The position numbers were made by a program, and so were the translations under genes. The notes under the pieces were generated by a model that made no database searches, had not been told where the DNA came from, and worked only from the letters and a program-made list of their open reading frames with translations. Source: a virus. From it: a stretch of DNA of 64,000 nt. Every line of letters starts with the position of its first letter. Within the stretch, counting starts at the first letter, position 1. Below are positions 27,905 through 63,661 of this stretch, one piece after another. The stretch spans positions 45,219-109,218 of IMG/VR virus record IMGVR_UViG_3300031227_000018, one strand, 5' to 3'.

Positions 27905-29306
27905 GAATAATTGTGAGATAGACAGCATGGAAAATTCTTGTGATTTGAGAGAAGAAGAGAATTGGGATTTTGATACAAAAGAAAGGTATGGAAGTCCACG
28001 AGTAAGTTCTGAATATATGGATTGTTCTTTGCCATTGACTTTTGATCAATATTCGTATTGTTCTATGAAGTGCAAATATTGTTTTGCATATTATCAAAAA
28101 GCGATGAATCCGTCTATGCGTTCTGGGATAAAATTAAAGGGGGTTAATGTAGACAAATTGATTAAAATGTTTAAAGGGGAAATACCTGAAGACCCATATT
28201 ATCATAATTTTATTAAAAAGAAGTTCCCATTCCATTGGGGTGGCCTTGCTGATCCGTTTGATATGGTTGAAAAAAAATATAAACTTGGTTTTAAATTATT
28301 GGAAACTTTGGTGGAATTGAATTATCCAGTTATATTTTCTACAAAAGGAACATTACCCTCACAAGAACCCTATTATTCTTTGTTTAAGAATGCTGCAAAA
28401 AATAAGAATTTTGCATTTCAGTTCAGTATTATTGCTAATTCCGATGAGTTATCGAAAAAGATAGATGTTGCAGTTCCGACAACTTCTGAAAGATTACAGT
28501 GCATGAAAACAATGTCAGATTTAGGTTATTGGACTGTATTAAGATTAAGACCTTTTATAGTTGGAATAAGTGATATTGATGTAGAAGAGCTTATAACCCG
28601 TTCTTCTCAAAATGGTGCGAATGCTATTTCCACTGAATTTTATTGTTATGATGCTAGATGTTCAAATAATGTAGAAATAGCAAAAAGATTTAAGGAAATA
28701 TCGCAAATATGTGGTTTTGATATCATCGATTTTTACAAAAAGTTAAGCCCTTCTGAGCGAGGTGGTTATAGGAGATTGAATAGAAATCTTAAAGAAGAGT
28801 ATGTGAAAAGAATGTATACAACCTGTAAGAAGGTTGGTATGCAATTCAATATTTCGGATCCAGATTTTAAAGAACTTAATGACAGCGGTTCTTGTTGTGG
28901 TTTGCCTGAATTAAGGGAACAGTATGACAGTGATTTGGTTAATTGGTCTCGTGGGCAATTAACTTATCATCTCAAGGAATTACGTAAAAGATATTGGGCA
29001 AGTGGAGGTAAAGAAAGGTATTTAAAGATTCGTGATGTGATGGGAGATTCTTATGATGGTTGGTTAAAAGAACCGCGTTTTTATAGTGATAGTCTTAAAA
29101 ATTGGGCAACTTCTTGGGCAAAAGTTAATATGGGTTATAGAGACGAATTCATACAAACATGGAATAATACCAGGAGTTCTGGTAATCCGTACAATTATTT
29201 TCATGGTAAGATTAAACCTTCTTATATTGATGATGATAATAATGTTGTTTTTGAGTATGTTCCCCATGATTATGAGAAGAGGTGGAAAGAAGAAGGGATA
29301 TTGTAA
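27897..29306 (+). CDS. Radical SAM enzyme (spore-photoproduct-lyase-like)
   Basis: DQYSYCSMKCKYCFA (CxxxCxxC), GGLADPF, STKG, RLRPF, late SCCG. Start ATG 27897 after GGAGG. Confidence 0.9.
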   Translation: MDKNNCEIDSMENSCDLREEENWDFDTKERYGSPRVSSEYMDCSLPLTFDQYSYCSMKCKYCFAYYQKAMNPSMRSGIKLKGVNVDKLIKMFKGEIPEDPYYHNFIKKKFPFHWGGLADPFDMVEKKYKLGFKLLETLVELNYPVIFSTKGTLPSQEPYYSLFKNAAKNKNFAFQFSIIANSDELSKKIDVAVPTTSERLQCMKTMSDLGYWTVLRLRPFIVGISDIDVEELITRSSQNGANAISTEFYCYDARCSNNVEIAKRFKEISQICGFDIIDFYKKLSPSERGGYRRLNRNLKEEYVKRMYTTCKKVGMQFNISDPDFKELNDSGSCCGLPELREQYDSDLVNWSRGQLTYHLKELRKRYWASGGKERYLKIRDVMGDSYDGWLKEPRFYSDSLKNWATSWAKVNMGYRDEFIQTWNNTRSSGNPYNYFHGKIKPSYIDDDNNVVFEYVPHDYEKRWKEEGIL

Positions 29307-30044
29307 ATGGGAATAAAATATTGTAGGTCTTGTTGTCAAATGACTAGTCACGGTTTAAATGACAGGTGTTTAAAGTGCGGAAAAAATAATTTAATTCAAA
29401 AAAATATATTGGGGGAAGAATGTTGGGTTAGAAAAGATACTTGGGATGAAAATATTTTTAAAGAAATGGGATTGTATTTGAAAAAGATTTCTTTAACTCC
29501 TGAGGATGTCTGGCTGGATGTAGGCGGTAACATAGGGAGTTTTTGTAAAAAAATTGCCAAAGAAGTTGCCACTGTTATTGCTTATGAGCCAGATGAAAAT
29601 AATTTTGAACTTTTAAAGAAAAATAATGAAGAAAGTGATAATATTATTTTTGTAAATAAAGCTGTTATTGGAAATGCTGATATTGTGAGGGATTTTTATT
29701 TGAATCAAAAAACCAATAAGAGTACACATTCTTTTTTTGTTAAACGTGGAAGGGAACGCGTTGAGGTTGGATGTGAGAATGTTAATGAGATAATTCAAAA
29801 GTATAAAGTTGATAAAATAAAAATTGATTGTGAGGGGAGTGAGTACGAAATCATAAAATCTATTGTTGATTTTTCTTCAATTAAAGAAATATTTGTGGAA
29901 TTTCATTTAAATATTTTATGTAAAAAGAATGATTTAACTAAGTACAGGGAAGTTATTAAAATCCTTAAAAAGAATTTTGCGTATTTGGAGTATCCGGAGG
30001 ATGTTAAAAAAAATTGGCATGTTTATATTTATGTGAAAAAATAA
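29307..30044 (+). CDS. FkbM-family SAM methyltransferase with N-terminal zinc ribbon
   Basis: LDVGGNIG, AYEPD..N..LL..N, IKIDCEGSEY, VEFH; CRSC..CLKC at the N-terminus. Confidence 0.9.
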   Translation: MGIKYCRSCCQMTSHGLNDRCLKCGKNNLIQKNILGEECWVRKDTWDENIFKEMGLYLKKISLTPEDVWLDVGGNIGSFCKKIAKEVATVIAYEPDENNFELLKKNNEESDNIIFVNKAVIGNADIVRDFYLNQKTNKSTHSFFVKRGRERVEVGCENVNEIIQKYKVDKIKIDCEGSEYEIIKSIVDFSSIKEIFVEFHLNILCKKNDLTKYREVIKILKKNFAYLEYPEDVKKNWHVYIYVKK

Positions 30045-31214
30045 ATGAGATATATACATTCACAAAATAAAGATAAAGAATTTATCGATTGGAGAAACCC
30101 TTCTAGAAGGAAAGAAGGGTTTTTAAAGTGGTTAAAATGGAGAATGCGGTATGGAGATTTGGACCATTACGTTTGTAATAATTCCTACAGGGATGCAATT
30201 GGCAAAATGTCTCCAACTGGTAAATCAATGACTAAGGAGCAGGCGCATTGGTTTTCTTTAATTTTTGGTATGACTTATCAATCAGAAATGGCGTGGGTTA
30301 TTTATTGGAATTTTCCTGATTTTTGGTCTATCAACATTGAAGAGTTAGAAAAATGGAATTTGGATAATATTGATCGACAAAGGTATGCTCGTGATACTAA
30401 ATATAATAAAGGGAGGATCGTTAGTCAAGTCAAGTCCCTCCAAAATGAAATTGGTCCTTCCGGTTCTATTGAAAAGTTTTTTGGTGAATCATTGAGTGAT
30501 GATGAAAATGAGTCTTTTGAAAAAGTTTTTAATTCTTGTATGAGGTTTCATAAGTATGGAGGTATGACTTCTTGGTTGACTTGTCAGTTGTTATTCGAAA
30601 CTGCCAATGTACCGATTAAACCTGACACCGTCAGAGCCACCACACCTTGGAATTGGTCAGTAAGGTCGGGTTTGATGTATGCTTATAATAGGGACGATAA
30701 GATTGAAGCTACTTGTAAGGATGTTGAGTTTTGTGATAAAGATATTGAACAAATAAAAGAGTATGAAAAAGAGTTGTATGAGTTAGCGAAAGATTGTATT
30801 GATGAAAATGATAAAAAGATTTTTTCAAATTATTTATTAGAATCTCATTTGTGTCAATATAAAAAGTTAATGTTAGGAGGTGATTATGCTGGTCATTCTT
30901 CTGGAGATCACTTTTCAAGGGCACTTTGGTTATCTGAACGGTGGCCTGAAGTAAATTTTGATGTATTTTTTAAAGAAGCAATAAAAAAACATTGTCCGAT
31001 TGTAAGGGGAAAAAGGGAGAGTAAACAGCTTCGGTTTGTTTGTTCTAAGACAGGTCAGATGATAAATATGCATGAGGACTTTCAGGAATTGCCTAATATG
31101 TATTTGGAATTGGGAATAAATCCTGATTGGTTTTATACTAAAGAATATGACGAAGAAGTGGGAAGTAGAGTTGATAGTTATGCAAATAAAATTTATAATT
31201 CTAATTGGTGGTGA
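30045..31214 (+). CDS. Amino acid:DNA transferase (aGPT-Pplase2 clade) DNA-hypermodification enzyme
   Basis: DWR..RRKE.FL, WFSLIFG.TY, FPDF, D.KYNKG, F.KYG.MTSW, SVRSGL, LES.LCQYKK. Confidence 0.75.
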   Translation: MRYIHSQNKDKEFIDWRNPSRRKEGFLKWLKWRMRYGDLDHYVCNNSYRDAIGKMSPTGKSMTKEQAHWFSLIFGMTYQSEMAWVIYWNFPDFWSINIEELEKWNLDNIDRQRYARDTKYNKGRIVSQVKSLQNEIGPSGSIEKFFGESLSDDENESFEKVFNSCMRFHKYGGMTSWLTCQLLFETANVPIKPDTVRATTPWNWSVRSGLMYAYNRDDKIEATCKDVEFCDKDIEQIKEYEKELYELAKDCIDENDKKIFSNYLLESHLCQYKKLMLGGDYAGHSSGDHFSRALWLSERWPEVNFDVFFKEAIKKHCPIVRGKRESKQLRFVCSKTGQMINMHEDFQELPNMYLELGINPDWFYTKEYDEEVGSRVDSYANKIYNSNWW

Positions 31215-31228
31215 AAGGAAGGGGTAAA

Positions 31229-31606
31229 ATGATTAACACTTATGATCTTGATGGGGTTGTTTATTTAGGAGATGATTATGATGGTATTTATCCAGGTAGA
31301 GAAGACATCATTATAACGGGGAGAAGTATTGAGGAAGCGAAGTCTACGCATGAAATGTTGAGGTTGAGGTGCATTTATAGTCATGTGTTTTTTAACCCAA
31401 TTCCATTCAGTGCAAAAACTAGAGAATCTTCTGGTTATCATAAAGTTAATGTGATTAAAATGTTGATTGAAAGCGGTTATGAACATGGCCTTCATTTTGA
31501 TGATGATGAAATTCAGATCAAAATAATCAAAGAGCTCCTTCCCAATGTTCGTGTTGTGCATGTAGTTTCTGATATTGTTGAGAAGGAAAATGTTAGACAT
31601 GATTGA
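31229..31606 (+). CDS. Small HAD-superfamily phosphatase
   Basis: YDLDGV, IITGRS, K, HFDDD motifs. Confidence 0.8.
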   Translation: MINTYDLDGVVYLGDDYDGIYPGREDIIITGRSIEEAKSTHEMLRLRCIYSHVFFNPIPFSAKTRESSGYHKVNVIKMLIESGYEHGLHFDDDEIQIKIIKELLPNVRVVHVVSDIVEKENVRHD

Positions 31607-32099
31607 GGGCAAAATGTTAGAAATAGAAAAGAGAATAGTTATTGAACCTGAAAGTGTTGTTTGGAATCAGAAGGTAAAGGAGTGGTGCGGTCTTCCGTAT
31701 TATGATAAAAAAAATGGATGTCCAAATTTCAATAAACGTAAGGGATGTCCGATGGATAATAAGAATATAGATGAAATTTTAGATGTCAATAAAAAAACTT
31801 ATATTGTGGGTGTTGTTTTTAATTTAAAAGAATATCGCGATGAAATGAAGAAAAAACATTCAAATTGGACATATCGACAATTAAACAATGTGATATATTG
31901 GCAAGGATCAATTTTTGGAAAAATGAAAAGGGAAGTCAATAAGTTTTCATTGATGAATCCTGGTTTAAAAATTGTTTATAAGCCAGAAGCATATGGAGTT
32001 AATTTAACAAAGATGTTATTGAATTCGGGTGTTCCGATAAACTGGAAGTACCCGTTGAGAAAGATTTATATTGTGGCGTTATTAGGAGGAAAAATATGA
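31599..32099 (+). CDS. DUF2284-like metal-binding protein
   Basis: WC..GCPNFN...CP and PEAYGVNL.KM motifs. Confidence 0.65.
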   Translation: MIEGKMLEIEKRIVIEPESVVWNQKVKEWCGLPYYDKKNGCPNFNKRKGCPMDNKNIDEILDVNKKTYIVGVVFNLKEYRDEMKKKHSNWTYRQLNNVIYWQGSIFGKMKREVNKFSLMNPGLKIVYKPEAYGVNLTKMLLNSGVPINWKYPLRKIYIVALLGGKI

Positions 32100-32614
32100 A
32101 AGAATTTATTGCAGTTATTGGTCAAAGTGCATGTGGTAAAACAACATTTGTTCAAAATGAATTTATTGGGGCAAATGAGATGGTGTTAAATAAAGATCCA
32201 CTTTTACATACTGTTGTTAATGATTGTTGTTTATTGGGGGATTATGTTACGTCTGTGAGGACAAAAGGTACTGACAGGTTTTCTTATTCTATTTTACCAG
32301 ATTTGATTGAGTTTATAAAAAATAAAAAAGATGAATACAATCGTTTTGTCGCAGAAGGTGATAGAATAAATTGTGAAAGATTCTTCCAGTCTTTAAAAGA
32401 TTTGAAATTGAATGTTACGGTTTATGTTTTTTTATGTGATGTTAATTTGAGCGTTCAGCGTAGAGTTGATTCTGGTTCAAAACCTTCAGAGCAATTTGTA
32501 AGGGCAACTCAAACTAAAACTTTAAGAATGAAAAAAATGGTAGAATCTTTAGGGTTTAAAGTTATTGTTGAAGATTCTAGAACAGAAAACAATATCAAAC
32601 ATGGATGGTGGTGA
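32096..32614 (+). CDS. P-loop nucleotide/DNA kinase of the type linked to base-modification clusters
   Basis: GQSACGKTT, LGDY..KGTDRFS, EGDRI, RR..GS motifs. Confidence 0.75.
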   Translation: MKEFIAVIGQSACGKTTFVQNEFIGANEMVLNKDPLLHTVVNDCCLLGDYVTSVRTKGTDRFSYSILPDLIEFIKNKKDEYNRFVAEGDRINCERFFQSLKDLKLNVTVYVFLCDVNLSVQRRVDSGSKPSEQFVRATQTKTLRMKKMVESLGFKVIVEDSRTENNIKHGWW

Positions 32615-32617
32615 CTT

Positions 32618-32998
32618 ATGCGTGAAGAACTTGAAGCAAAAATGTTTTGTCAATTATTATATAAAGAGGGGTATGTTGAAGGTACGTCTGGTAATTTAAG
32701 TTTTAGAGATAGAAGTAGAGTTAAAATAACTCGTACAGGTTGTACATTGGATGATCCATTTTTTGTTGATACAGAAAGTTTTGAGGCTTCATCTGATGTT
32801 AATTTACATAAAGAAATTTATCGATTGACGGATAGTGATTGGATTTTTCATGTTCATAAAGACCTTAAATTAAAATTTCTTTTGACAGATAAAGATTTGG
32901 ATCTTCATTGGTTTAATGTAAGAGATCATGGGGTTTGGGTTGGATGTGGAGTTGATATAAAAATTTATAGAATTCTTGAAGATGAGGGAATTTTATAA
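32618..32998 (+). CDS. Minimal class II aldolase/adducin-family protein
   Basis: GTSGNLSFR, ITRTG, ASSD..LH..IY, FHVH, HGV. Confidence 0.8.
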   Translation: MREELEAKMFCQLLYKEGYVEGTSGNLSFRDRSRVKITRTGCTLDDPFFVDTESFEASSDVNLHKEIYRLTDSDWIFHVHKDLKLKFLLTDKDLDLHWFNVRDHGVWVGCGVDIKIYRILEDEGIL

Positions 32999-33030
32999 GG
33001 GTAGGTGATGATATGAAATTTAAAAAGTAG

Positions 33031-33067
33031 AATAGTTTTTTATTTTTATTCTAGTTTAAAGTAGAGT
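33031..33067 (+). promoter_or_regulatory. Conserved phage promoter P5 (TTTATT-N17-TAGAGT)
   Basis: Motif copy upstream of the replicative helicase. Confidence 0.7.
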
Positions 33068-33075
33068 GAGGGGAT

Positions 33076-34530
33076 ATGAATTTAGACAACAGATTTCCGT
33101 TCGAGTTGGCCCTGCAAAGAACTATTTTAAAAGTAATGTTCAAAAACGAAACATTTTTTTTAAAATGTATGTCGCATTTGAAAAGTGAATATTTTGAGAA
33201 TCAATATTTATCTTGGCTTTATAAACTTATTGTTAGTTATTATAAAGAATACAAAACACTTCCATCAATGGAAACTGTTAGAAATGAAATATTGAAGTTT
33301 GAAGTTAAGGATCGAATATTGTATGAGAAAGTTTATGATGATATATTGGCAACTGACTACAAGGATTTGGAATATCTTTATCATGAATTGACTGGGTTTG
33401 CAAAGAGAGCTTATTTTGTTGACAATATAAAGCGAACCTTAAGTCTTTATAATGAAGGTAATCGCAATAATGCATATCGTCATATGAAGGAGTTTTCTCA
33501 AAGTTTGTCGGAAATAGATTTTGAAGAAAGTGACTTATTTGATTATTCGAATTTGTTTCCATTATTGGAAGGTCTTCGTTCTCCGAAATTTAGAATGCCA
33601 CTATCTATAAAACCTTTTGACGAAGTTATGGCTGGGGGGATGCCAAAAGGTCGGTTGATGTTGATATTGGCAGGCGTGAGTCAAGGTAAGTCGATGGTTT
33701 TAACTAATTTGGGGAAAAATTTTATTCAAAAAGATAAGAAGGTGTTGTTTATTACGTTGGAGAATCCAGAGGATGAGCAAATAACTCGTTTTTTGTCTCC
33801 TATGACGGATATATCTCAAGATGATTTTAATAAAAGAGAATTGACTGATGATGAAAAAGTCAAGGTTATAATGGCGAAGGAAAAGATGGAAAAGAATCTG
33901 TTTTTAAAAAGTTGGTATGAAGATTCCTTGACTATTGAACATATTGTTAATTATTGTAAAGTGAGACATGCAATGGATCCGTATGACGTTTTAATTATAG
34001 ATTACGTCCAGTTGATTAAACAAAGGGCATCGGAGCGCATGCGTGACCTGTGGGCTATCCAGGGTGATATTGTGAAGGGTTTGCAGAATTTAGCAAGGAA
34101 TTTGAATATTTGCGTTATAAGTGCTGCTCAGATCAATAGGTCAGCAATGCAAAAGACTCGCAAGAGTAAAGGGTTCAAAGATTTGACTCGGATGACTGAT
34201 GTTGGTGAATCTTATAATCAAGTTAAGATAGCCGATATTGTTCTTACTTTAACTGTTTCAGATGCTGATTATAAGAATAGTGTTATGCGAATGTTGTTGG
34301 ATAAACATCGTGGGGGTGAAAAAGGTATCTTGGTTGAGGTTGAGGTTGATTTTCCAACTCAAAAAATATTCAGTCCGGATTTGCGATGTAGAAAGTTGAA
34401 ATGGTCAGATGCACTTAATCCCTCAGGAAATAGAGATCCAAAAGATTTGGATGAAGAACCTGAGAGTGAAGAAAGCGGGACTGATAATGTGAAGGTGTCG
34501 GAGGCTGAAATTGAAAAACTCTTATCATAA
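33076..34530 (+). CDS. dnaB: DnaB-like replicative helicase
   Basis: AGVSQGKS, FITLE, IIDYVQL, SAAQINR, KHRGG. Confidence 0.9.
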   Translation: MNLDNRFPFELALQRTILKVMFKNETFFLKCMSHLKSEYFENQYLSWLYKLIVSYYKEYKTLPSMETVRNEILKFEVKDRILYEKVYDDILATDYKDLEYLYHELTGFAKRAYFVDNIKRTLSLYNEGNRNNAYRHMKEFSQSLSEIDFEESDLFDYSNLFPLLEGLRSPKFRMPLSIKPFDEVMAGGMPKGRLMLILAGVSQGKSMVLTNLGKNFIQKDKKVLFITLENPEDEQITRFLSPMTDISQDDFNKRELTDDEKVKVIMAKEKMEKNLFLKSWYEDSLTIEHIVNYCKVRHAMDPYDVLIIDYVQLIKQRASERMRDLWAIQGDIVKGLQNLARNLNICVISAAQINRSAMQKTRKSKGFKDLTRMTDVGESYNQVKIADIVLTLTVSDADYKNSVMRMLLDKHRGGEKGILVEVEVDFPTQKIFSPDLRCRKLKWSDALNPSGNRDPKDLDEEPESEESGTDNVKVSEAEIEKLLS

Positions 34531-35488
34531 TCAACAAGATGTATTGAGTTTTGATTTAAAAGGGTTGTTGTCTTCCCATTTCAATAATTATTGTGAAAAC
34601 AATAACAGCTATTATATGGCATGTCCTTTTTGTGGAAAAAAAAATAAGTTTTATATTCAGAAAAAATACAAGTATTTTATATGTTTTGTATGTGAAGAAA
34701 AGGGGAGCATTTATAGACTCCTTGCACATTTAAAAAATATTCCGTCTAAAGAAGCGTATAAGATAATACATAAAATTAAAGAAGAGAATTTGTCGTATGA
34801 TGATGAATTGAAATTGAAGTTTGTTGATGAAGTTTATGAATCTGAATCTGATGTTTTGAATTTGGATTTGAGTTCTTTGGGATTTTATTCATTGTTAAAA
34901 TTCAAAGAAAATCACGAAGCAAGGGAATATATAGCTCATCGCGGTTTAGATGATAATATGATACAGCATTTTAATTTACATTATTGTGATAGAACTAAGA
35001 GGGTGATTTTTCCTGTTGAATTTGAGGACAAAATTGTTGGATATCAAGCTCGTGATATAACGGGAGAACAAGAACCGAAGATTCTTTCTTCAAAAGGTTT
35101 TCAAAAGACTAGGTTTTTGTATAACTACAACAAGTTGCTCTATGATTTACCAGATTATGTTGTTTTAGTGGAAGGGCCAATAGATTGTATAAAGTCGTAT
35201 GAGTATAATTCTGTGGCATTATTTGGTAAACACATGTCAAAAGATCAGCTTCATTTATTATTGAAAATACCGACTTTAAAAAAAGTGTATATAGCTTTGG
35301 ATCCGGAAGAAGAAGAGGGTCGGTTTGAGATGATGAAAGATTTATCTGCTTTTTGGGAAACGCTGCTCGTTCCTGTGGAAATTGGCAAAGATATAGGGAT
35401 GTATAGTTCTTGGGAAATTGGAATGTTATTGAAAAGATCTCAGTCGATATTTGATTTTGGAGATCAACTAAATATAGAAGATAAATAG
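34511..35488 (+). CDS. DNA primase (Zn finger + Toprim)
   Basis: CPFC..CFVC, RVIFP, GYQAR, VEGPID, ALD. Confidence 0.9.
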   Translation: MKNSYHNQQDVLSFDLKGLLSSHFNNYCENNNSYYMACPFCGKKNKFYIQKKYKYFICFVCEEKGSIYRLLAHLKNIPSKEAYKIIHKIKEENLSYDDELKLKFVDEVYESESDVLNLDLSSLGFYSLLKFKENHEAREYIAHRGLDDNMIQHFNLHYCDRTKRVIFPVEFEDKIVGYQARDITGEQEPKILSSKGFQKTRFLYNYNKLLYDLPDYVVLVEGPIDCIKSYEYNSVALFGKHMSKDQLHLLLKIPTLKKVYIALDPEEEEGRFEMMKDLSAFWETLLVPVEIGKDIGMYSSWEIGMLLKRSQSIFDFGDQLNIEDK

Positions 35489-38687: not shown

Positions 38688-39551
38688 ATGATAAAAGAGA
38701 AGAGGGATGACCAGGAAGTTCAAGTTGTGTTTGCTATTTATGGTGGAGATTCTGAAAGTAGGAGGAATTTGTCCGGTGGTATTATAAAATATTGTAAAGA
38801 GAAAGCCATTAAAGTAGATTTGGCGTTGCCATTGCACACTTTAGCTCGATCTTTGTTCAATGTGCCTCCACAGTATTTGTTGGAAAAGGATAAAGAATTT
38901 TTGTCTCCAATTTTGGTGAATGATTTTACTATTAAACGAGCGATAAAAACTATTTATGATAGCCTTGGTACTTTGGCTAATTTTAATCCGAACAGAATTG
39001 GATTGAATAATTTTAATAGGCCGCGTTTAAAATCGGGTAATGATGTGTTGAAGTTCATTGGATTTGAGCTTATTCGTAAGGTTTATCCGAATTTTTTATC
39101 AGTTGTTTCGTGTAAAAATATATTGGGGAGAACGGGCAATTTTGTTGTGGAAGGGATAAAGTTTTATGATGAATACAATTATTTGGTTGATAATTTTCAA
39201 TTAGTGTACCCAATAAAGATTGAAGAAAAGAAAGCAAAGAAGGACGATGTTGTTGATGATTATGCTGTTTTAAAAGATGATTTACGAGATATTCAGCCGT
39301 CATCTGTATTGTCATTTGGGTTATCGGCGAAGGATGGACTTAAAGAGGCAGAAAAGTTATGCCCAAAAATAGAAGAAAATGTCAATGAATTGTTGGAGCT
39401 AGGCGATGTAAAGCCAATTTTTATCCCACAAGTTGTTGCACCGAATGCTCTTAATCATAATCAATCCAATGAAAGTGGAGTTATTCGTACAAATAATGCT
39501 GTTTTTGAAAAAAAAGCACATATTTGGAGTGATGATGAAGTGATAGTCTAG
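38688..39551 (+). CDS. Deoxynucleoside-monophosphate-kinase-like protein with degenerate P-loop
   Basis: ALPL..L...LF, VLKFIG.ELIRKV.P, VVEGIKF.DE resemble T4 gp1-type kinases; the Walker A lysine is absent. Confidence 0.5.
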   Translation: MIKEKRDDQEVQVVFAIYGGDSESRRNLSGGIIKYCKEKAIKVDLALPLHTLARSLFNVPPQYLLEKDKEFLSPILVNDFTIKRAIKTIYDSLGTLANFNPNRIGLNNFNRPRLKSGNDVLKFIGFELIRKVYPNFLSVVSCKNILGRTGNFVVEGIKFYDEYNYLVDNFQLVYPIKIEEKKAKKDDVVDDYAVLKDDLRDIQPSSVLSFGLSAKDGLKEAEKLCPKIEENVNELLELGDVKPIFIPQVVAPNALNHNQSNESGVIRTNNAVFEKKAHIWSDDEVIV

Positions 39552-39565
39552 CGAGGCGATTTGAT

Positions 39566-40390
39566 ATGGGTATAAAGAGAATTTTTATTGCATTGATTTA
39601 TATTGCACTTATTTTGGTGTTTAGTTTTTTTATTATAAAAGGGATGAAGGGTTGCACTAATGATAGTGACATTAAAATGAAGGGTAATATTGATGCGACT
39701 TATTTGATTCATTCTTATGCTCGTAAAACAAATTCTCCAGATTTTGTTTATAAAAAAGATGGGGATGTAAGGTATTTATTTCATGAAATTCATTTGAATG
39801 AGAAAGGTAAAGATGGTCCGGCATTAGGTTATGTTATGATTTATCCGGATGGTCGTGTTGTTAGTGGTGTGTATAAGCATGAGATTCAAACAAGAACTGA
39901 AATTGTTTATGAAAAGGAAGAGGTCGTAACAAAAAATAAAGCATATTTAGTGATGAAGCAATCTGGTTTGGCTAATCGTAAAGGCAGTGACAGAGTGAAT
40001 TGGAAGAATGTTCCTTATGAGTTGGAATTGATAAGTGTAGAAGAATCTTTTAATGTAGAGGTTGTGAAAAGGCGTAAAATAGTTTTTGATTTTTGTCCGG
40101 AAATAGGGGTAAATGGTATTATGGTTTTCAAAGATCAAGAATTTGATGTAATTCCGAGTTTGGGTTTTTCTGTCATTAGCTATAAAGACGGTGAGAAGAT
40201 TAAATATCGTTTTTTAAAGTTTGCAGTGGGAGTTAGGGATCTTAGTGCAGGTGCGAATATCAGTTTTTCTCCTGTATTGTATAATCTTGGTAATAAGATA
40301 AGTTACATCAATAACACTTATTTAGCACCTGTTTTGGGTTATGATAAACGTGGTTTCGATTTTGGATTATCTTTAAGTTTAACATTTTAA
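39566..40390 (+). CDS. Membrane-anchored protein with C-terminal amphipathic beta-strands and beta-signal
   Basis: N-terminal TM helix; ends FDFGLSLSLTF. Confidence 0.55.
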   Translation: MGIKRIFIALIYIALILVFSFFIIKGMKGCTNDSDIKMKGNIDATYLIHSYARKTNSPDFVYKKDGDVRYLFHEIHLNEKGKDGPALGYVMIYPDGRVVSGVYKHEIQTRTEIVYEKEEVVTKNKAYLVMKQSGLANRKGSDRVNWKNVPYELELISVEESFNVEVVKRRKIVFDFCPEIGVNGIMVFKDQEFDVIPSLGFSVISYKDGEKIKYRFLKFAVGVRDLSAGANISFSPVLYNLGNKISYINNTYLAPVLGYDKRGFDFGLSLSLTF

Positions 40391-46259: not shown

Positions 46260-46757
46260 ATGCTTAAAATAAAAAATAAAAAACAAAAAGTGGAAGAGGT
46301 TAAAATAAGCAAAGAAGAGTATGATCGTTTGAAGGATGTAGATGAAGAATATGGAGCGATGTTTAAACAGTGGAGAGAAATGGGGAAAAGGGTTGGGTTG
46401 GCGAATAAAAGTTTGATTATAATGGCTGGTACGTTGAAAACTGTGGATGGTTTATTGAAAGATAATTTTAATGTTTGGTTAAGTAAGACGATCAAGGCAG
46501 GGAAAGCGGTTATAACTGCGAAAGTCAGTACGTTTAGGAATGAAAAGGATGTAGCAGATACAATAGAAGGGGCTTATTTGCAAGCTGTTTTGGTTAAAGT
46601 AGCTCAAAATTCAAAAAATTATTACAGTGGTGGAAGTGATCTTTGTGAAATGTTTATGGGAAATTTGGATGATAGTGTACCGAAAGAAATAAGGGAAGTG
46701 ATGAAAGAAGGGGTTCTTAAAGGTGCTGTTAAATTGGATAAGGAGGGGGAGGAATGA
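46260..46757 (+). CDS. Hypothetical protein
   Basis: Contiguous plus-strand ORF, 165 aa. Confidence 0.6.
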   Translation: MLKIKNKKQKVEEVKISKEEYDRLKDVDEEYGAMFKQWREMGKRVGLANKSLIIMAGTLKTVDGLLKDNFNVWLSKTIKAGKAVITAKVSTFRNEKDVADTIEGAYLQAVLVKVAQNSKNYYSGGSDLCEMFMGNLDDSVPKEIREVMKEGVLKGAVKLDKEGEE

Positions 46758-47374
46758 AATTAGATAAGGTACAAGCTGTTAAAAAATACCATATTGTTTA
46801 TGCTACAATCAATTTAAAAAATTCTAAATTGTATATTGGAAGGCATTCTACCGATAATTTAGAAGATGGATATTTGGGTAGTGGGAAGATTCTCAATAAG
46901 GCTATTAAAAAATATGGTAAAGAAGTTTTTGCTATTGATATTTTGGAGTTTTATGATACATTTGAAAAATGTTGTAAAGGTGAAAAGTTTTGGATTCGTA
47001 TGTTTAAAATGCCAAATAAAATATCAAATGATGTTTATAATATTTCGGATGGGGGGGAAGGGAATTTGGGTTATACTCATACAAATGAAACTAAATTAAA
47101 GATATCGGCTCCAGGTGAGTCTAATCCTATGTTTGGTAAAAAGCATAAAGAGAGTACAAAAGAGTTGATAAGAGTTAAAAGACTTAAAAATTTGGAATCT
47201 AAAGAATTCAGAACTAGGATGATTAAAGTTCATGCTGATGTGTCAGGGAATAAAAATCCTTTTTATGGCAAGCATCATTCTGAAGAAACAAAGAAGAAGA
47301 TTGGTTTATCCAATATGGGTAAAAAGCGTTCCAAAGGAATTCTACAAAAAATTGAGATAAATTGCATTGGATAG
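46754..47374 (+). mobile_element. Free-standing GIY-YIG homing endonuclease with NUMOD3 repeats
   Basis: IVY..N.K.YIGRH..YLGSG..AIKKYG, YNI..GG.G, NPMFGKKH, NPFYGKHHSEETKKKI. Confidence 0.9.
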
Positions 47375-53334: not shown

Positions 53335-54219
53335 ATGATTATATCTGATGAAATTAAAGAAAAAATATTTGATGTAATAGACAGCCATTTCAATGGTATT
53401 TTGATAAAGATGGGAGGTAGGGGTGCATTGAGTAGGGAGCAGATTGAAGAGTTGATACAGCGAGGTATTTATTCGTTGGAAATTCCAGTAGGGTTGGTTG
53501 AGGATGCGTATTACATCGGACGTCTGAGACCCACTGTGAAACTTCCAGATGCGGTAATAGATGACATACGACTCGCTAAGTTGGCATTGCCAATGTCAGA
53601 CACTGAAAATTATGCGTTGAAATATGTGAAAGAATCTGTCGGTGAATACGTAACTAAGTTACAGAATAATTTTAAGACCACTGTATCTCAAATTATTGGT
53701 AAACAAAATCTTATGTATAGAAACAAGATTTTAACGGAAATTGTTCGTCCCACAATTGTTAGTGGAATAATCAAGAGAAAAACGGTTGGGGCAGTTGCTT
53801 CAGAATTAAGAGATAAGACAAAAGATATGTTTCGAGATTGGCAGAGGGTGGCCGAAACTGAAATGACTAATGCAGTAAATTACGGTGCTTATGATGCTAT
53901 TGTTAGGCAAAGTGAGGAAAAGGGTGAGAAGTTGAAAGATGTTTATGTTGCGAAAATTGTGGTGATGGACAATGCTTTGTGTCCTCATTGTAGAAAGTTT
54001 TTTGTTAGTGGAGATGGGTCACCAAAAGTTTATCCTCTCTCGGAATTGCAGGCGAATGGGGATAATTATGGTAGGAAAGCTGTAGATTGGAAACCTGTAA
54101 TCGGTTCGGTTCATCCTCGGTGTCGTTGTCAATTAGTGCACATTCAAACAGGTTGGCAATTTGAGCCTGGCACTCAAGAGCTTCAGTTTGTTGGAGTGGG
54201 AAAAGAAAATTATAAGTAA
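53335..54219 (+). CDS. MuF/SPP1 gp7-like head morphogenesis protein
   Basis: RDWQRVAETE, ALCPHC, HPRCRC. Confidence 0.85.
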   Translation: MIISDEIKEKIFDVIDSHFNGILIKMGGRGALSREQIEELIQRGIYSLEIPVGLVEDAYYIGRLRPTVKLPDAVIDDIRLAKLALPMSDTENYALKYVKESVGEYVTKLQNNFKTTVSQIIGKQNLMYRNKILTEIVRPTIVSGIIKRKTVGAVASELRDKTKDMFRDWQRVAETEMTNAVNYGAYDAIVRQSEEKGEKLKDVYVAKIVVMDNALCPHCRKFFVSGDGSPKVYPLSELQANGDNYGRKAVDWKPVIGSVHPRCRCQLVHIQTGWQFEPGTQELQFVGVGKENYK

Positions 54220-54256
54220 AATAGTTTTTTATTTTTGTAAAAAAATAAAGTAAAAG
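54218..54256 (+). promoter_or_regulatory. Conserved phage promoter P6 (TTTATT-N17-TAAAAG)
   Basis: Motif copy; about 30 nt identical to P7. Confidence 0.75.
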
Positions 54257-54265
54257 GAAGGTACT

Positions 54266-54862
54266 ATGAAATTACAACAAAAATTAAAACAGATTCAGCA
54301 CAAAATAGATTTAGTTAAATTGTATAAGCTAGTTGAATCATGGTCTAAATTCCCGATACATTTTCCTGATGAAATTGATGAGAAAGTTGCGAAAGAAGTG
54401 GTTGATGCATTGGTTATTTTTGCCAAAGAGAAGATCAGAGAAATAGAAAGTGAAGAAGATATGTTGGGTGAAGAAGGTGTTGTGGGCGATGAAAAAATAA
54501 GGTTTTATGATTTTTCTTCGAGAGAAATCTTTTGTCTTAAGAAGTTGGCTGAAAAATTGGTGGGATTATCTTCGGAAGATGATACGAAAAAAGGTGGGGC
54601 GGTTGAAGAAAAGAAAAAAAAGCGGGGAAGACCTAAAAAAGATGGTAAAAAAGATGGTAAAAAAGATGAAATTGATAACAGTCGATTCAAGGGTCTTACA
54701 GTTAAGTTGATATCTTTAAGCAACCTTAATCCTAGTGTTGCTGAGAGACCAGTATGTGCGTATGATTTATGTAAAGTGATAGGTGTTAATCATGATATTT
54801 TAACCATTCAACATCAGTCGACGGGCGATGTATTTGACGTCCCTGTGGAGGATGTAGAATAA
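54266..54862 (+). CDS. Hypothetical protein with AT-hook and SH3-like C-terminus
   Basis: KKRGRPKK; C-terminal beta-barrel pattern. Confidence 0.55.
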   Translation: MKLQQKLKQIQHKIDLVKLYKLVESWSKFPIHFPDEIDEKVAKEVVDALVIFAKEKIREIESEEDMLGEEGVVGDEKIRFYDFSSREIFCLKKLAEKLVGLSSEDDTKKGGAVEEKKKKRGRPKKDGKKDGKKDEIDNSRFKGLTVKLISLSNLNPSVAERPVCAYDLCKVIGVNHDILTIQHQSTGDVFDVPVEDVE

Positions 54863-54885
54863 TTATTATCAGAAAAGGGGAAGCC

Positions 54886-55548
54886 ATGAAAAAAGGTTTT
54901 GATCCAAAAAAAGGCAGTGTAACTAATATTAGAAAACCATTAAAGGCTCAGACACCATCACCTTTTATGGATCTTAGTACTGCGGTGAAAAATGAGGTAA
55001 ATAAAACTGCTGGTGTTTTAATTCAGCAAGTCAGCATTCTCAGTCGTGCGAATTCTTTGTTCAGGCAGTCGCTTGAGGTTTTGCAGACAAGTGTTGATGT
55101 TTTGAAAAGACGTTTGAATGAAAAAGGTATTTTAAGCGAGGAGGAATATCAGAAAGGGTTCGCCATCTGTTATTCTGACCTTCAATTGGCGAAGATGAAA
55201 ATCAACGAAGAGGCGTTAGATGGTAGGGATGGCGTTCAGGACAGTGATTTAGAGGCAGAAGATGGTGATGTTGTTATAATGAAGTATGAGGCTCATATAA
55301 ATGATGAAGAGTTTGAAGCGAATAAAGCTGACTATTATAGGCTCAAAATTGGTGGTCCGGAGAGTTGGACAGAACTTGGTGCATCTTTGATAGGTAAGAA
55401 GAAGGGCGAAAAGTATTCAATTAACTTTAAGTTTCCCGATAATGAGATTCGTAAGGACATAGCAGGGAAAGAGGCAATATTTGATGTTGAAGTTTTAAAA
55501 GTTAAAAAGAAAATAAAAGTTGAGGGTGACAATGAGAGTGGTAATTAA
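54886..55548 (+). CDS. Trigger-factor-type FKBP domain protein with N-terminal coiled coil
   Basis: AEDGDVVIMKYE..F..L.IG..LIGKKKGE...F.FP.....IAGKEAIFDVEVLKVK. Confidence 0.8.
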   Translation: MKKGFDPKKGSVTNIRKPLKAQTPSPFMDLSTAVKNEVNKTAGVLIQQVSILSRANSLFRQSLEVLQTSVDVLKRRLNEKGILSEEEYQKGFAICYSDLQLAKMKINEEALDGRDGVQDSDLEAEDGDVVIMKYEAHINDEEFEANKADYYRLKIGGPESWTELGASLIGKKKGEKYSINFKFPDNEIRKDIAGKEAIFDVEVLKVKKKIKVEGDNESGN

Positions 55549-56671
55549 CAGAAAAGATTTGTTATCTGTTCTTGGGGAATTGAATAAAATAACAGTTGGT
55601 AAGGCTAGGAATTTGATTTCAAAGTGTACGACTTTTTCAATCAATGACAATAAGATTGAGTTGTTTGCAGGAAATGCAAGGGTTTATAGAGAGTTTACTC
55701 TTGATTGTGTGGAAAGCGACATTCACAGTTTTTCTTTTTGTGTATTGACTGATCTGTTGTTACGATTTTTAAGATTTTGTAGAAATGAAGAGGTTGTTTT
55801 TGAAATAGATACTCGAACAAAGATGTGCGTCATTAAGGAGGATAACACTGAGTTTTTGGTTTATTTTTTTGAATTGGAAAGTTTTTCAAATTTTAATCAA
55901 AAAAATAAAAAGGAAGGGTTGTCATGTTGGATTAAGAATGACTTATTCAAAGATGTGGTCAGTTCTGTAATTTCCATTATTGGTGATGATTATGGTTTTG
56001 ATTGTGTGAAGTTTGATTTTGGTGAAACTATCAAAATAATTTGCACTGATGGTGAGAGGATGAATTGTGGTGTAGTAAAAGATATTATGCATTTTGATTT
56101 TGATGGTACCGTTAGTTTTACATTATCATTAAAGAATGTCAATGATATGTTGAATTTTTTGAATTTTTGTAAGAATGACAGTTTGTTGAGAGTGATTGTT
56201 CATGACAATCAAATTGAACTTTATAATGAACAAAATTGTTGTAAAATAAAGTTTTGTGATGACTCGAATTGTTTTTTGTCGTTTGATGACCTTTCTTTTA
56301 AGTATCGGGAAGAGTTCGGCAAGATGATGCTAAACTGTGATGATTTTTATCGTATGTTGAAGAGGTTCTCTATTCTATATGAAAAAGGGTTTTCGAAAGT
56401 GGTATTTGGTATGGAAAGATGCAGGTTGCAAGCCAAGATCAATCATCGAGCCTATGGGAGTATTAGTGATTCTATTCCTGCAATTTATAATTCTAAGACA
56501 AGTCCGGTGTACATTGGGTTAAATCCTTATTATTTAATGGATGCAATTAAAAAGAGTGTGGGTAAAGGGGTAACATTATACTATAGAGACAATCATTCCC
56601 CTGTTGTTTTTGATTGTTGTAAAGAAGATTATGAAACATTTTCTTTAATCATGCCAATGCAAGTGAGTTAA
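55532..56671 (+). CDS. dnaN: DnaN-like beta sliding clamp (divergent)
   Basis: ~380 aa; INRKDLL..L, TDGERM, IGLNPYYLMDAI, SPV, LIMPM. Confidence 0.85.
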   Translation: MRVVINRKDLLSVLGELNKITVGKARNLISKCTTFSINDNKIELFAGNARVYREFTLDCVESDIHSFSFCVLTDLLLRFLRFCRNEEVVFEIDTRTKMCVIKEDNTEFLVYFFELESFSNFNQKNKKEGLSCWIKNDLFKDVVSSVISIIGDDYGFDCVKFDFGETIKIICTDGERMNCGVVKDIMHFDFDGTVSFTLSLKNVNDMLNFLNFCKNDSLLRVIVHDNQIELYNEQNCCKIKFCDDSNCFLSFDDLSFKYREEFGKMMLNCDDFYRMLKRFSILYEKGFSKVVFGMERCRLQAKINHRAYGSISDSIPAIYNSKTSPVYIGLNPYYLMDAIKKSVGKGVTLYYRDNHSPVVFDCCKEDYETFSLIMPMQVS

Positions 56672-56673
56672 TT

Positions 56674-57039
56674 ATGAAGACAAAAAAAAATTTTTGGGAA
56701 AGTTTATCTGTTTTTTCTTCTTTATCTGGAGTGAAGGAAGATATGAAAGATATTGAGAATAAGTTGAATGTTTTAAATGAAGACATTCAAGTAAAGAATA
56801 AGATCATTGAGGTTTTTCAGACTCAGCTTTATAAACGCGAGAATATGTGGAAGAATATCGTAAATGAAAAGCAAGATATGATGGAAAAACAGGCTGAAAT
56901 TATCAATAATTTGGAGGGAACAGCTTTGATGTTTTACAATGTTTTGTATAAAATGAAAGATGTGGAGAGCGTGGAAGAGGTTGAAGATATTTTGGATAGT
57001 TACAGCATTGATTTTCAAGACATGCCTTTTGTTCAATGA
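56674..57039 (+). CDS. Coiled-coil hypothetical protein
   Basis: Coupled to dnaN; heptad pattern. Confidence 0.55.
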   Translation: MKTKKNFWESLSVFSSLSGVKEDMKDIENKLNVLNEDIQVKNKIIEVFQTQLYKRENMWKNIVNEKQDMMEKQAEIINNLEGTALMFYNVLYKMKDVESVEEVEDILDSYSIDFQDMPFVQ

Positions 57040-57142
57040 GTGAAGTGATTGATATTTAATGGTGTTTAAAGAAAGTTTAAAAAAAACTTTTTTTTTGTTT
57101 TCATTGAAGTATAGTATGTTAACTGACAATTGAAAGGGGGGA

Positions 57143-57547
57143 GTGATGGGGGCATCATGGAGATCTACTATACCAGTCGCGTTTTATAATTTCACACCAG
57201 TTGTATCGTTTGGCAAATGTAAAGAAGAGGTCGAGTTGGAGGATAGGAATCTATTTCTTGATATAGAAAAGATTCCGGATAATAAGTTGTATCGTTTTTG
57301 GGAGGGTTTTTGTATTGATAGAAGGTATTCTTATGTTATAGCGGAAGGGTCTTTAAAAGATGAAGTTCGATGTAGGCAGGTTGAAAGAAAAAGCAAGGAT
57401 ATGGGGAAAACTGTTGATCAATTCTTAGCTGGAAAACAAACTAAAAAAGGTCATAAAGATTACTCTATTGGATATCCGGATAAGATATTCGGGTTTTTCA
57501 GATTAGATCGTGATTTAGAATATCTTAAAGCTGATGAGACTTGTTAG
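57143..57547 (+). CDS. Hypothetical protein
   Basis: SD-like GGGGGAG; followed by a terminator. Confidence 0.55.
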   Translation: MMGASWRSTIPVAFYNFTPVVSFGKCKEEVELEDRNLFLDIEKIPDNKLYRFWEGFCIDRRYSYVIAEGSLKDEVRCRQVERKSKDMGKTVDQFLAGKQTKKGHKDYSIGYPDKIFGFFRLDRDLEYLKADETC

Positions 57548-57565: not shown

Positions 57566-57596
57566 GAGGGACATATGTTTTTGTCCCTCTATTTTT
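57566..57596 (+). terminator. Intrinsic terminator
   Basis: GAGGGACA/TGTCCCTC stem followed by TATTTTT. Confidence 0.65.
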
Positions 57597-60441: not shown

Positions 60442-61392
60442 ATGATGAAATATGATGAATTAAAAGAACAGATAGTGGCTCGCCATCAGGAATTGAATCC
60501 TGTGGATCATATTGTTTCTTACCCTGAAGTTGAATACAAATATGATGAGAAATTTAATCGCCCTACGTTATTGACTAAGAAGGGCGAGTTTAGTCTTGAT
60601 GAATGGGCGCATGGGCAGTTGTGTGGAAGACTCGGCATCCCCAATGGTTATATCAATAAATGTCCACCAGATTTAAAAGAAGATAATATCAATTATTTTC
60701 TTAAACATCGTTTGGGAGATTTGAAATTACGAACAATCAAAGAGAATCGGGTTCGCGCTGTTCTTACACCAAGCTACACGTCTATTGATGATTATGATTT
60801 AATAGATTTGATTCAACCATTTATGGTATCTAGAGAAATTGAGATTATCAGTTGTTATCATGGTGAATTGATGACATCTTTTCGTGGAGTTTTTGTTGAG
60901 CAAGAAAAAGTTGCAATAGAAATTGGGGACCCTACAAAAAGAGGGGTTATGATCAACAATTCTGAGGTTGGTTACATGGCGGTGCAGTTTAGGGCGTTTA
61001 TGTATCGTTTAGTTTGTACGAATGGGTTAGTTCTTCCTCGGGATGTTGGTGGTTTTCATTTTAGACATCGTGGCAATAAGGATCGTATTTATCATACGTG
61101 TGAAACGATAGTCAATTCATTGGATGAACATCTTGAAGTTTATTTCAATAAATTTCAAAATTCTCGTGAAGTGAAGGTGAGTGATCCTTTGATGATTATT
61201 CAAGAAACAGTAAAAAAAGAGAATTGGCCAAAGAAGTGGGAAGACATTTTTGTGTCGGCTTATAATATAGAACCGCATGAATCTTTATTCGGGATTATCA
61301 ATGCATTTACGAGAGGTGCTCAGAAATTGAAAATTCATCAGCGTGTTCAAATTGAGGAATACGCAACTGAGTTATTGAGAGAAGTGGCATAA
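60442..61392 (+). CDS. DUF932-family protein
   Basis: A.GQLC.RLGIP, RAVL...Y, NSEVG, RLVCTNGL, H.G, INAFT. Confidence 0.8.
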   Translation: MMKYDELKEQIVARHQELNPVDHIVSYPEVEYKYDEKFNRPTLLTKKGEFSLDEWAHGQLCGRLGIPNGYINKCPPDLKEDNINYFLKHRLGDLKLRTIKENRVRAVLTPSYTSIDDYDLIDLIQPFMVSREIEIISCYHGELMTSFRGVFVEQEKVAIEIGDPTKRGVMINNSEVGYMAVQFRAFMYRLVCTNGLVLPRDVGGFHFRHRGNKDRIYHTCETIVNSLDEHLEVYFNKFQNSREVKVSDPLMIIQETVKKENWPKKWEDIFVSAYNIEPHESLFGIINAFTRGAQKLKIHQRVQIEEYATELLREVA

Positions 61393-63175: not shown

Positions 63176-63661
63176 ATGGCAAAGATAAATTTTCCGAGTG
63201 GAATAACAGTAGAAACTGATTCAAAAGAAGAGCTTTTTGAAATTGTAAATTTTTTTGATAAATCAACTAAAAATGAGGCAAAAAATGTATTGCCAAAAGT
63301 CATTAAAGTTAAAAAAAAGGGAAAAACAAAATCATGTTTGAATTGTGGTAGGACATTTTACAAAAAGGGGAGAAGGTGTTTCTGTTCAAATATATGTTCT
63401 ACTCGATATCATGCACTAAAAAGAAAAGTAGAAAAAGTGTGCAAATATTGTGACAAGATTTACAATGGGGGACCTAACAGTATCTATTGTAGTAAAGTGT
63501 GTTCGGGGAAAGCTATTCAACGAAAAAGAAGGAAAATAAAAGTGGAAGAAAAGTGTGCTGAGGTGGGACCCTTTTCTCCTGTTACTATAAGGAGGGCTGC
63601 GACTGGTGAGGAGACAAGAAGAGGTTCACCGGAGATGAAAATGATAGCGAAGGGAGTTTAA
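63176..63661 (+). CDS. Zinc-finger hypothetical protein
   Basis: Two CxxC..F/YCSxxC units. Confidence 0.65.
   Translation: MAKINFPSGITVETDSKEELFEIVNFFDKSTKNEAKNVLPKVIKVKKKGKTKSCLNCGRTFYKKGRRCFCSNICSTRYHALKRKVEKVCKYCDKIYNGGPNSIYCSKVCSGKAIQRKRRKIKVEEKCAEVGPFSPVTIRRAATGEETRRGSPEMKMIAKGV

Follow-up and report, generated by a model that had tools for sequence, protein, structure and literature searches.

A contractile-tailed phage genome with two types of sliding clamp, one T4-type clamp loader and a single DnaE polymerase

We analyzed a stretch of DNA of 64,000 nucleotides from an uncultured phage (the window hereafter), which covers bases 45219-109218 of the IMG/VR record IMGVR_UViG_3300031227_000018, a record of 109,218 bp with direct terminal repeats that is rated 100% complete. 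The genome encodes two sliding clamps, a bacterial-type beta clamp (DnaN) without a loader of its own type and a PCNA/gp45-type clamp whose gene is followed by that of a T4-type loader, and its only recognizable DNA polymerase is the family C enzyme DnaE (Pol III alpha). Clamp, loader and polymerase normally form a matched set within one lineage. Here, in a natural genome, a bacterial-type polymerase could turn either to a bacterial-type ring or to a PCNA-type ring with its own loader, and because one genome offers DnaE both rings, the freedom of polymerases to swap clamps becomes directly testable. No case of both clamp types in one phage was found in two surveys of viral replicases (PMC3201878, PMC4889955), a review of jumbo phages (PMC7824862) or a keyword search of the literature, and we found no published example of a beta clamp without a loader, together with a full T4/PCNA-type clamp and loader set, beside a sole DnaE. 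As argued below, we lean tentatively toward the PCNA-type set as the clamp platform that serves DnaE at the phage fork, with DnaN as an accessory clamp that would depend on the host loader. Coordinates of the features are collected in Table 1.

The dnaN product matches the Pfam model of the C-terminal clamp domain (DNA_pol3_beta_3, PF02768; 36.3 bits, cut-off 27), with no Pfam match to the N-terminal and central domain models (PF00712 and PF02767). Over nearly its whole length it matches phrog_947 ('processivity factor'; 1.5e-20, residues 1-378) and, in a phmmer search of the PDB, solved beta clamps (1.8e-8, residues 2-377), with only 13-21% identity to the solved cellular beta clamps matched. 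The AlphaFold2 (AF2) model, built from a 47-sequence alignment of distant homologues, has a predicted local distance difference (pLDDT) of 91.1 and a predicted template modelling score (pTM) of 0.88 (a single-sequence fold gave a pLDDT of 35), and the best Foldseek matches of the model are all beta clamps (full length, TM 0.84-0.88). AF2 and Foldseek together show three intact tandem clamp domains in a confident ring-type fold, so that at the level of the model the product is confirmed as a full three-domain beta clamp. Cys makes up 4.7% of its residues (18 Cys), against 1.55% in the proteome, and the protein is very divergent, with only 59 matches at E<1e-3 among 1.8 billion cluster representatives. 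The residues that align with the partner pocket of E. coli beta (T172, G174, R176, L177, N320, Y323 and M362-P363-M364) are T172, D173, G174, R176, M177, N331, Y334, M374, P375 and M376; in other words, the TDGxR motif, the N320 and Y323 equivalents and the C-terminal MPM are kept, and the differences from E. coli beta are a gap at R152, E for H175 and L for P242. Judged from this alignment, the partner pocket is largely conserved. The computed pI of 5.7 lies near that of E. coli beta (5.25), among the acidic values computed, and a lower pI has been tied to ring-forming, loader-dependent clamps (PMC3201878).

The second clamp matches phrog_223 (4.4e-12) and Sulfolobus PCNA3 (2e-9 over residues 14-232, phmmer against the PDB). 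An Atlas model of its exact sequence (pTM 0.83) resembles archaeal PCNA clusters at TM 0.85-0.89 over residues 1-233, and the protein aligns end to end with other PCNA homologues, including their ...LAP(K) ending. No Pfam match to the PCNA_N/PCNA_C or gp45 models was obtained, and the hhalign match to T4 gp45 is weak (63% probability). In sequence the protein is nearer to archaeal PCNA than to gp45; the modelled fold is that of a two-domain PCNA/gp45-type clamp. Neither clamp had a tblastn match in 50,697 GenBank phage records, word-based protein searches with the clamps returned only the proteins themselves, a 56%-identical PCNA-type relative on a 6.2-kb contig (P0061) and one weak PCNA, and scans of IMG/VR and JGI data with the PCNA-type protein gave no match. 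PCNA homologues of about 255-262 amino acids (aa) were seen on 8-28-kb contigs (L014-L018) binned to Acidimicrobiaceae, Neomarinimicrobiota, Bacteroidetes and Pacebacteria metagenome-assembled genomes; these are probably viral contigs binned with bacteria.

The gene that adjoins the PCNA-type clamp gene encodes an AAA+ clamp-loader ATPase with the Pfam domains AAA and DNA_pol3_delta2, which shares 33-39% identity with the gp44 proteins of T4-like phages, among them cyanophages of this type and Melnitz phages. The overlapping gene after it had no Pfam or PHROG match, and BLAST against T4 gp62 was not significant; among the 30 Atlas clusters nearest to its product, 27 share a feature set containing PF16790 (Phage_clamp_A; score 0.94), and on these Atlas features the product is probably gp62-like, which we treat as a lead. 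The first-pass annotation of the window had spoken of two clamps from different domains of life. Two clamp types are indeed present, but the domains-of-life wording is overstated, since the PCNA-type set is a phage T4-type gp45/gp44/gp62 module rather than a recent archaeal import.

The whole genome encodes a single loader ATPase of the PF13177 type, with no second loader-type ATPase and no delta subunit (PF06144), so the earlier view that the RFC-type loader stands alone, without DnaX or delta, holds for the complete genome. Neither a family A (PolA) nor a family B (PolB) polymerase was found in it, which leaves DnaE as the only recognizable polymerase. As both clamp folds are genuine (AF2 and Foldseek for DnaN; Sulfolobus PCNA3 and the Atlas model for the PCNA-type protein) and no second polymerase is there to account for the PCNA-type ring, the two-clamp puzzle raised by that annotation is real. 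Also as it had noted, a QL[SD]LF-type motif is missing from DnaE. When the protein is aligned with E. coli alpha and the DnaEs of five phages, the loop bearing QADMF in E. coli and QMTLFD in a faecal-phage DnaE is seen to be deleted, and the protein ends right after the OB fold, without the tau/beta-binding tail (the tau-binding C-terminal domain). DnaEs that similarly lack the clamp-binding loop are found in 45-50-kb Bacillus and Geobacillus phages.

Table 1. Positions of the clamp, loader, replication and modification genes and of associated sequence elements in the window
Feature	Position	Strand	Remarks
80-aa Cys-rich (Zn-ribbon-like) protein	24814..25056	+	PCNA-interacting protein (PIP) box QAYISEFF; phrog_1581, function not annotated
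69-aa Cys-rich protein	25125..25334	+	tail ...RQLNLFEKEEVK, QL[SDN]LF motif; stop overlaps clamp gene start
PCNA/gp45-type two-domain sliding clamp, 233 aa	25331..26032	+	ends ...LVAPKA; phrog_223, Sulfolobus PCNA3, Atlas model
gp44-like (RFC small-subunit-like) AAA+ clamp-loader ATPase	26226..27149	+	phrog_168, 6.7e-64; adjoins clamp gene
Candidate gp62-like clamp-loader A subunit, 145 aa	27142..27579	+	overlaps loader gene end
DNA-hypermodification genes (radical SAM, FkbM methyltransferase, amino acid:DNA transferase, DUF2284-like, 172-aa protein)	27864..32614	+	same gene run as clamp and loader
DnaB-type helicase	33076-34530	+	directly upstream of primase and DnaE
DnaG-type primase	34511-35488	+	directly upstream of DnaE
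DnaE (Pol III alpha), 1058 aa	35497..38673	+	PHP, polymerase, fingers, HhH and OB domains
dnaN operon (198-aa protein, FKBP-like 220-aa protein, dnaN, 121-aa coiled-coil protein, 134-aa protein)	54266..57547	+	
dnaN, divergent Cys-rich bacterial-type beta sliding clamp, 379 aa from ATG	55532..56671	+	possible alternative start, upstream TTG at 55520; Pfam, PHROG, phmmer, AF2, Foldseek
Terminator-like hairpin with T run	57566..57589	+	closes dnaN operon
Promoter-like 21-mer TAAAATAGTTTTTTATTTTTG, exact	25049..25069	+	ahead of 69-aa/PCNA/loader operon
21-mer TAAAATAGTTTTTTATTTTTG, exact	54217..54237	+	ahead of dnaN operon
21-mer TAAAATAGTTTTTTATTTTTG, 2 mismatches	33028..33048	+	ahead of DnaB-DnaG-DnaE
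21-mer, <=2 mismatches	22926	+	ahead of GroEL
21-mer, <=2 mismatches	40075	+	about 340 nt upstream of gp32 gene
21-mer, <=2 mismatches	60357	+	ahead of gene at 60442
Weaker 21-mer copies	22897, 21605	-	ahead of two minus-strand genes

As seen in Table 1, the operon of the PCNA-type set continues into the hypermodification genes and lies directly upstream of DnaB-DnaG-DnaE, and the dnaN operon is 17 kb away from DnaE. The two operons and the DnaB-DnaG-DnaE genes are preceded by the same promoter-like 21-mer (TAAAATAGTTTTTTATTTTTG), which is usually followed, about 12-15 nt on, by GTAAAAG; shuffled genomes contain 0-2 copies at <=4 mismatches. Because the 21-mer is common to all three, both clamp operons appear to share an expression class with the replisome genes. 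TAnnTTTG within the 21-mer resembles the Bacteroidota -7 box, which may hint at a Bacteroidota host; a sigma-70-like sequence stands in its place in the relative G002 (see below). A sigma-70 consensus scan and a late-motif pattern with one mismatch allowed were also tried, and neither rose above chance.

Two small proteins encoded immediately upstream of the PCNA-type gene carry, near their C-termini, the sole canonical PIP box (80-aa protein) and the sole QL[SDN]LF motif (QLNLF followed by an acidic tail, 69-aa protein) of the genome. Both motifs thus fall within 149 of the 35,261 residues of the proteome. The tail of the 69-aa protein, ...RQLNLFEKEEVK, resembles the clamp-binding tails SLDFL[FY] of T4 gp43 and gp55 (taken from the T4 record), and by their motifs the two proteins look like candidate clamp adaptors. 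It is the placement of the motifs, not their number, that stands out. A PIP-like QEYFKDYF in DnaE (QKDFKDYF in G001, MKYFKDRF in G002) was considered and set aside as probably a structural helix, and a QVSIL motif in the FKBP-like protein beside dnaN is not conserved in orthologues. The modification enzymes have no canonical PIP box, only C-terminal WW ends: the amino acid:DNA transferase (30045-31214) ends in ..NSNWW and the 172-aa protein (32096-32614) in ..KHGWW, with a spacing that does not fit a canonical PIP box in either (the portal protein ends in ..EWWR). The primase has a conserved C-terminal S[IV]FDF (QSIFDFG in the window, KSVFDFK in G002, L025:8478-9449), which by its sequence may be a short aromatic-acidic peptide of the docking type.

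Using IMG/VR, we were able to compare the two clamp loci in three syntenic relatives (G001, 25.7 kb; G007, 20.6 kb; G002, 33.6 kb), whose identities to the window phage are 53-57% for DnaE, 54-66% for the large terminase and 51-56% for the portal. The dnaN operon is syntenic in all three, and the slot between the FKBP-like gene and the gene of the 121-aa protein holds dnaN in the window phage, G001 and G007. The DnaN proteins of these three are only 23-24% identical, which makes DnaN the most diverged orthologue pair (23% vs 56% for DnaE and 66% for the large terminase); the neighbours of dnaN in the operon diverge as fast, so the fast divergence is not specific to DnaN. The 121-aa orthologue of G002 directly follows the FKBP-like gene, dnaN is absent from the slot, and a profile search of the fragment found no dnaN (a 375-aa open reading frame (ORF) near the empty slot was considered and is not a clamp). 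G002 keeps DnaB-DnaG-DnaE (DnaE 53-54% identical), and its DnaB gene lies 75 bp after GroEL; missing from this slot is the whole 8.2-kb block 24814-33030, which in the window contains the two small ORFs, the PCNA-type clamp, the loader, the gp62-like gene, radical SAM, the methyltransferase, the amino acid:DNA transferase and more. Neither clamp gene is present at its slot in G002 or anywhere else in the 33.5 kb of the fragment.

The same comparison was extended to more distant relatives (portal about 29-30% identical). A complete 113-kb genome, G009, encodes DnaN and PolA, with no DnaE and no T4-type loader, and G008 (97% complete) encodes PolA only. In G005 and G006, two further complete phages with DnaE, both DnaN and a T4-type loader are lacking. 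From the slot pattern in G001, G007 and G002 and the DnaN without DnaE in G009, it follows that DnaN is a sporadic accessory gene in the wider phage group and not a fixed companion of DnaE. Bacteroides phage DAC19, whose capsid protein is about 30% identical, was also looked at; it has DnaE and neither clamp type.

A scan of JGI metagenomes returned 19 loci with loaders 33-47% identical to that of the window. In seven of them (L071, L072, L074-L076, L080 and L081; loaders 35-47% identical), a homologue of the window's radical-SAM gene (480 aa; 25-45% identical) follows the loader at a distance of 0.3-4 kb, as in the window pair at 26226-29306, and by these matches the gp44-like loader and the radical SAM form a gene pair that is conserved across several metagenomic lineages. 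Several loader loci have a PCNA-type gene just upstream. The hypermodification transferase and the FkbM methyltransferase were not found in the seven linked loci, and no polymerase was seen in the available flanks of the metagenomic loader relatives.

From the clamp folds, the one loader, the one polymerase, the shared motif and the presence/absence pattern, all of them observed, we infer who binds whom. The phage carries one self-sufficient T4-type set, consisting of the PCNA/gp45-like clamp, the gp44-like ATPase and, as a probable member, the gp62-like subunit, and, in a separate fast-diverging operon that is variably present among relatives, a beta clamp without a cognate loader. The phage loader would load the PCNA-type ring where primers end at the phage fork, and the ring would act as platform for DnaE, the modification enzymes and the two small motif-bearing proteins. 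DnaN would be an accessory clamp that reaches DNA solely through the host DnaX complex and is not an obligate partner of DnaE. The PCNA-type ring is put at the fork because it belongs to the sole self-loadable system, its genes adjoin those of the helicase, primase and polymerase, and DnaE is the sole polymerase; DnaN is taken as accessory because no loader goes with it, a close relative seems to do without it, a distant relative has it in the absence of DnaE, and DnaE offers no visible means of gripping it. The same reading is favoured by the 21-mer that the PCNA-type operon shares with DnaB-DnaG-DnaE, by the two clamp-type motifs encoded just upstream of the PCNA-type gene, by the 17 kb between dnaN and DnaE, by the low identity of the DnaN orthologues, and by the survey statements on clamps, loaders and polymerases in viruses (PMC4889955). 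If the PCNA-type set is indeed tied to the hypermodification enzymes, the phage would provide a bacterial-virus counterpart of eukaryotic clamp-coupled DNA methylation.

Several points weigh against assigning DnaE to the PCNA-type ring. We know of no family C polymerase that demonstrably works with a PCNA-type clamp. The partner pocket of DnaN is mostly kept, and its operon has the promoter motif of the replication genes, as would be expected of a working replisome clamp. The PCNA/loader block is missing from its slot in G002 despite the DnaE kept there, and the loader travels with the radical-SAM gene in other lineages, and both points link the PCNA-type set with modification, not with DnaE. 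Counts of PIP-like and beta-type clamp-binding motifs over the whole proteome are at chance level, equal to those of shuffled sequences. The QEYFKDYF of DnaE is given little weight because it aligns with the helix that precedes the OB fold in other DnaEs, and its FKD.FS core is kept in G002. G002 itself is a 22%-complete fragment with rearranged gene order, and either block could therefore lie elsewhere in its genome.

The main alternative, one of two offered by the first-pass annotation, is a division of labour in which DnaE runs on the phage beta clamp, loaded by the host DnaX complex, and the PCNA-type clamp and loader serve post-replicative hypermodification and perhaps late transcription, as T4 gp45 does. 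Every characterized family C polymerase that we know of uses a beta clamp, and the largely conserved DnaN pocket and the motif shared by dnaN and DnaB-DnaG-DnaE agree with such a role. On the PCNA side, the clamp, loader and modification genes make up one block that, in comparison with G002, was lost or gained whole, the linkage of loader and radical SAM is conserved at 35-47% loader identity, and T4 gp45 doubles as an activator of late transcription (T4 annotation; PMC2988020). Against the proposal stand a DnaE without clamp-binding loop or tail, a phage without a bacterial-type loader, and a dnaN that is absent from the G002 fragment and occurs without DnaE in G009. At 13-21% identity to solved cellular clamps, recognition of DnaN by a host loader is uncertain as well, and the ORFs scanned included no gp55-like late sigma (a 202-aa protein gave a weak match resembling sigma region 4). 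We consider this division possible, though somewhat unlikely, and only a little less probable than our preferred reading. A further-reaching reading has two orthogonal clamp channels in one virus, with DnaE re-fitted to the PCNA/gp45-type ring, which is put on DNA by the T4-type loader and also tethers the modification enzymes, and a host-loaded beta ring for other clients; we regard it as rather doubtful.

It is also conceivable that DnaE uses neither phage clamp, being intrinsically processive or relying on the host beta clamp or another factor, and that both clamps serve non-polymerase clients (modification enzymes and small adaptors for the PCNA-type ring, host or phage beta-binding proteins for DnaN). 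G002 keeps DnaB-DnaG-DnaE with no clamp gene at the slots or in the fragment, DnaEs without the loop occur in the Bacillus and Geobacillus phages mentioned above, and the complete DnaE phages G005 and G006 lack DnaN and T4-type loaders. However, the clamp genes of G002 may lie outside the 22% fragment, whose gene order is rearranged, a DnaE that works without a clamp would be unusual for a genome of 109 kb given the genome-size trend (PMC3201878), and a clamp and loader without a polymerase client would have no precedent in the surveyed viral replicases (PMC4889955), so this arrangement is unlikely.

Least supported, and very unlikely, is a DnaN that acts as decoy or take-over factor, soaking up host clamp-binding proteins or poisoning host beta through mixed dimers: the 23% identity between syntenic orthologues, the unusual Cys content, the lack of a loader and the presence in only some relatives would suit it, but the three domains are intact in a confident ring-type fold, the pI is acidic and near that of E. 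coli beta (a lower pI being tied to ring-forming, loader-dependent clamps, PMC3201878), and the operon neighbours diverge equally fast. The first-pass annotation had coupled this decoy with a DnaE that has switched to PCNA. The interpretation given there is supported in part: the findings above speak against DnaN as an obligate partner of DnaE, and a pure decoy is not indicated either, because most of the partner pocket is conserved.

Both clamp systems have known counterparts. In T4 (gp45, gp44/gp62 and the PolB gp43), as here, a two-domain clamp gene is accompanied by the gene of a gp44-like ATPase and, in the window probably, by that of a small gp62-like subunit, here overlapping the loader gene, and gp32, UvsX and gp46/gp47 homologues are also shared; the QLNLFE.. 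tail of the small upstream protein resembles the T4 clamp-binding tails. The window phage differs in that DnaE stands in place of a family B polymerase and the operon runs on into hypermodification genes. With the E. coli Pol III alpha/beta and DnaX system it shares the full-length DnaE domain set and a beta clamp of three domains whose pocket is largely conserved, but DnaX, delta and delta' as well as the QADMF loop and the tau-binding C-terminal domain are absent. According to Kazlauskas and Venclovas 2011 (PMC3201878), Bacillus phage 0305phi8-36 has DnaE and beta without a loader, and Ma-LMM01 and RSL1 have PolA, beta and a gamma-like subunit. The loader-less DnaN beside DnaE is thus like that of 0305phi8-36, and the DnaN and PolA of G009 are like those of Ma-LMM01 and RSL1, but a second, PCNA/gp45-type clamp with a T4-type loader is not reported for these phages (PMC3201878).

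In the surveys of viral replicases (PMC3201878, PMC4889955), few phages have polIII-beta, T4-type loaders are confined to T4-like phages (the sole carriers of such loaders in PMC3201878) and phage PAU, and a loader never comes without clamp and polymerase; according to PMC4889955, every viral clamp loader is accompanied by a clamp, and viral-specific processivity factors (e.g. T4 gp45) are always found together with a DNA polymerase. Late transcription is another process that clamps activate (gp45 in T4, host beta for phage Mu; PMC2988020, PMC12867686), so a non-replicative role for either clamp has precedent. By analogy with the coupling of DNMT1 to PCNA and with the thymidine hypermodification clusters of phages (amino acid:DNA transferase pathway), the DNA-modifying enzymes encoded in one run with the clamp and loader may be coupled to the ring.

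Other genes place the phage among contractile-tailed phages (sheath, baseplate J and tube-initiator genes were found), with a GC content of 36%, a capsid protein that shares about 30% identity with its counterparts in SPO1-like and Bacteroides DAC phages, and many T4-type replication and recombination genes (gp32, UvsX, the gp47/gp46 nuclease pair and the gp44-like loader). The large ORFs in the first 45 kb of the genome are structural or glycan-related. A GroEL-like chaperonin gene (591 aa, 23036-24811) lies directly upstream of the clamp block, and the G002 copy is 48% identical. The two ORFs after DnaE (38688-40390; 287 and 274 aa, the second with a hydrophobic N-terminus) also follow DnaE in all three relatives that cover the region (31-47% identical), with no Pfam or PHROG match. 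The window contains two homing-endonuclease genes (GIY-YIG/NUMOD3, 46754-47374; HNH, 63176-63661), and G001 and G007 have no counterpart of the GIY-YIG gene between the Rad50 and RuvC-like genes. The G001 orthologue (L005:6738-8639) of the head-morphogenesis-like protein of 294 aa (53335-54219) has 633 aa, and its extra part matches the Intein_splicing, Hint and DUF559 endonuclease models; the insert is probably an intein with a homing endonuclease.

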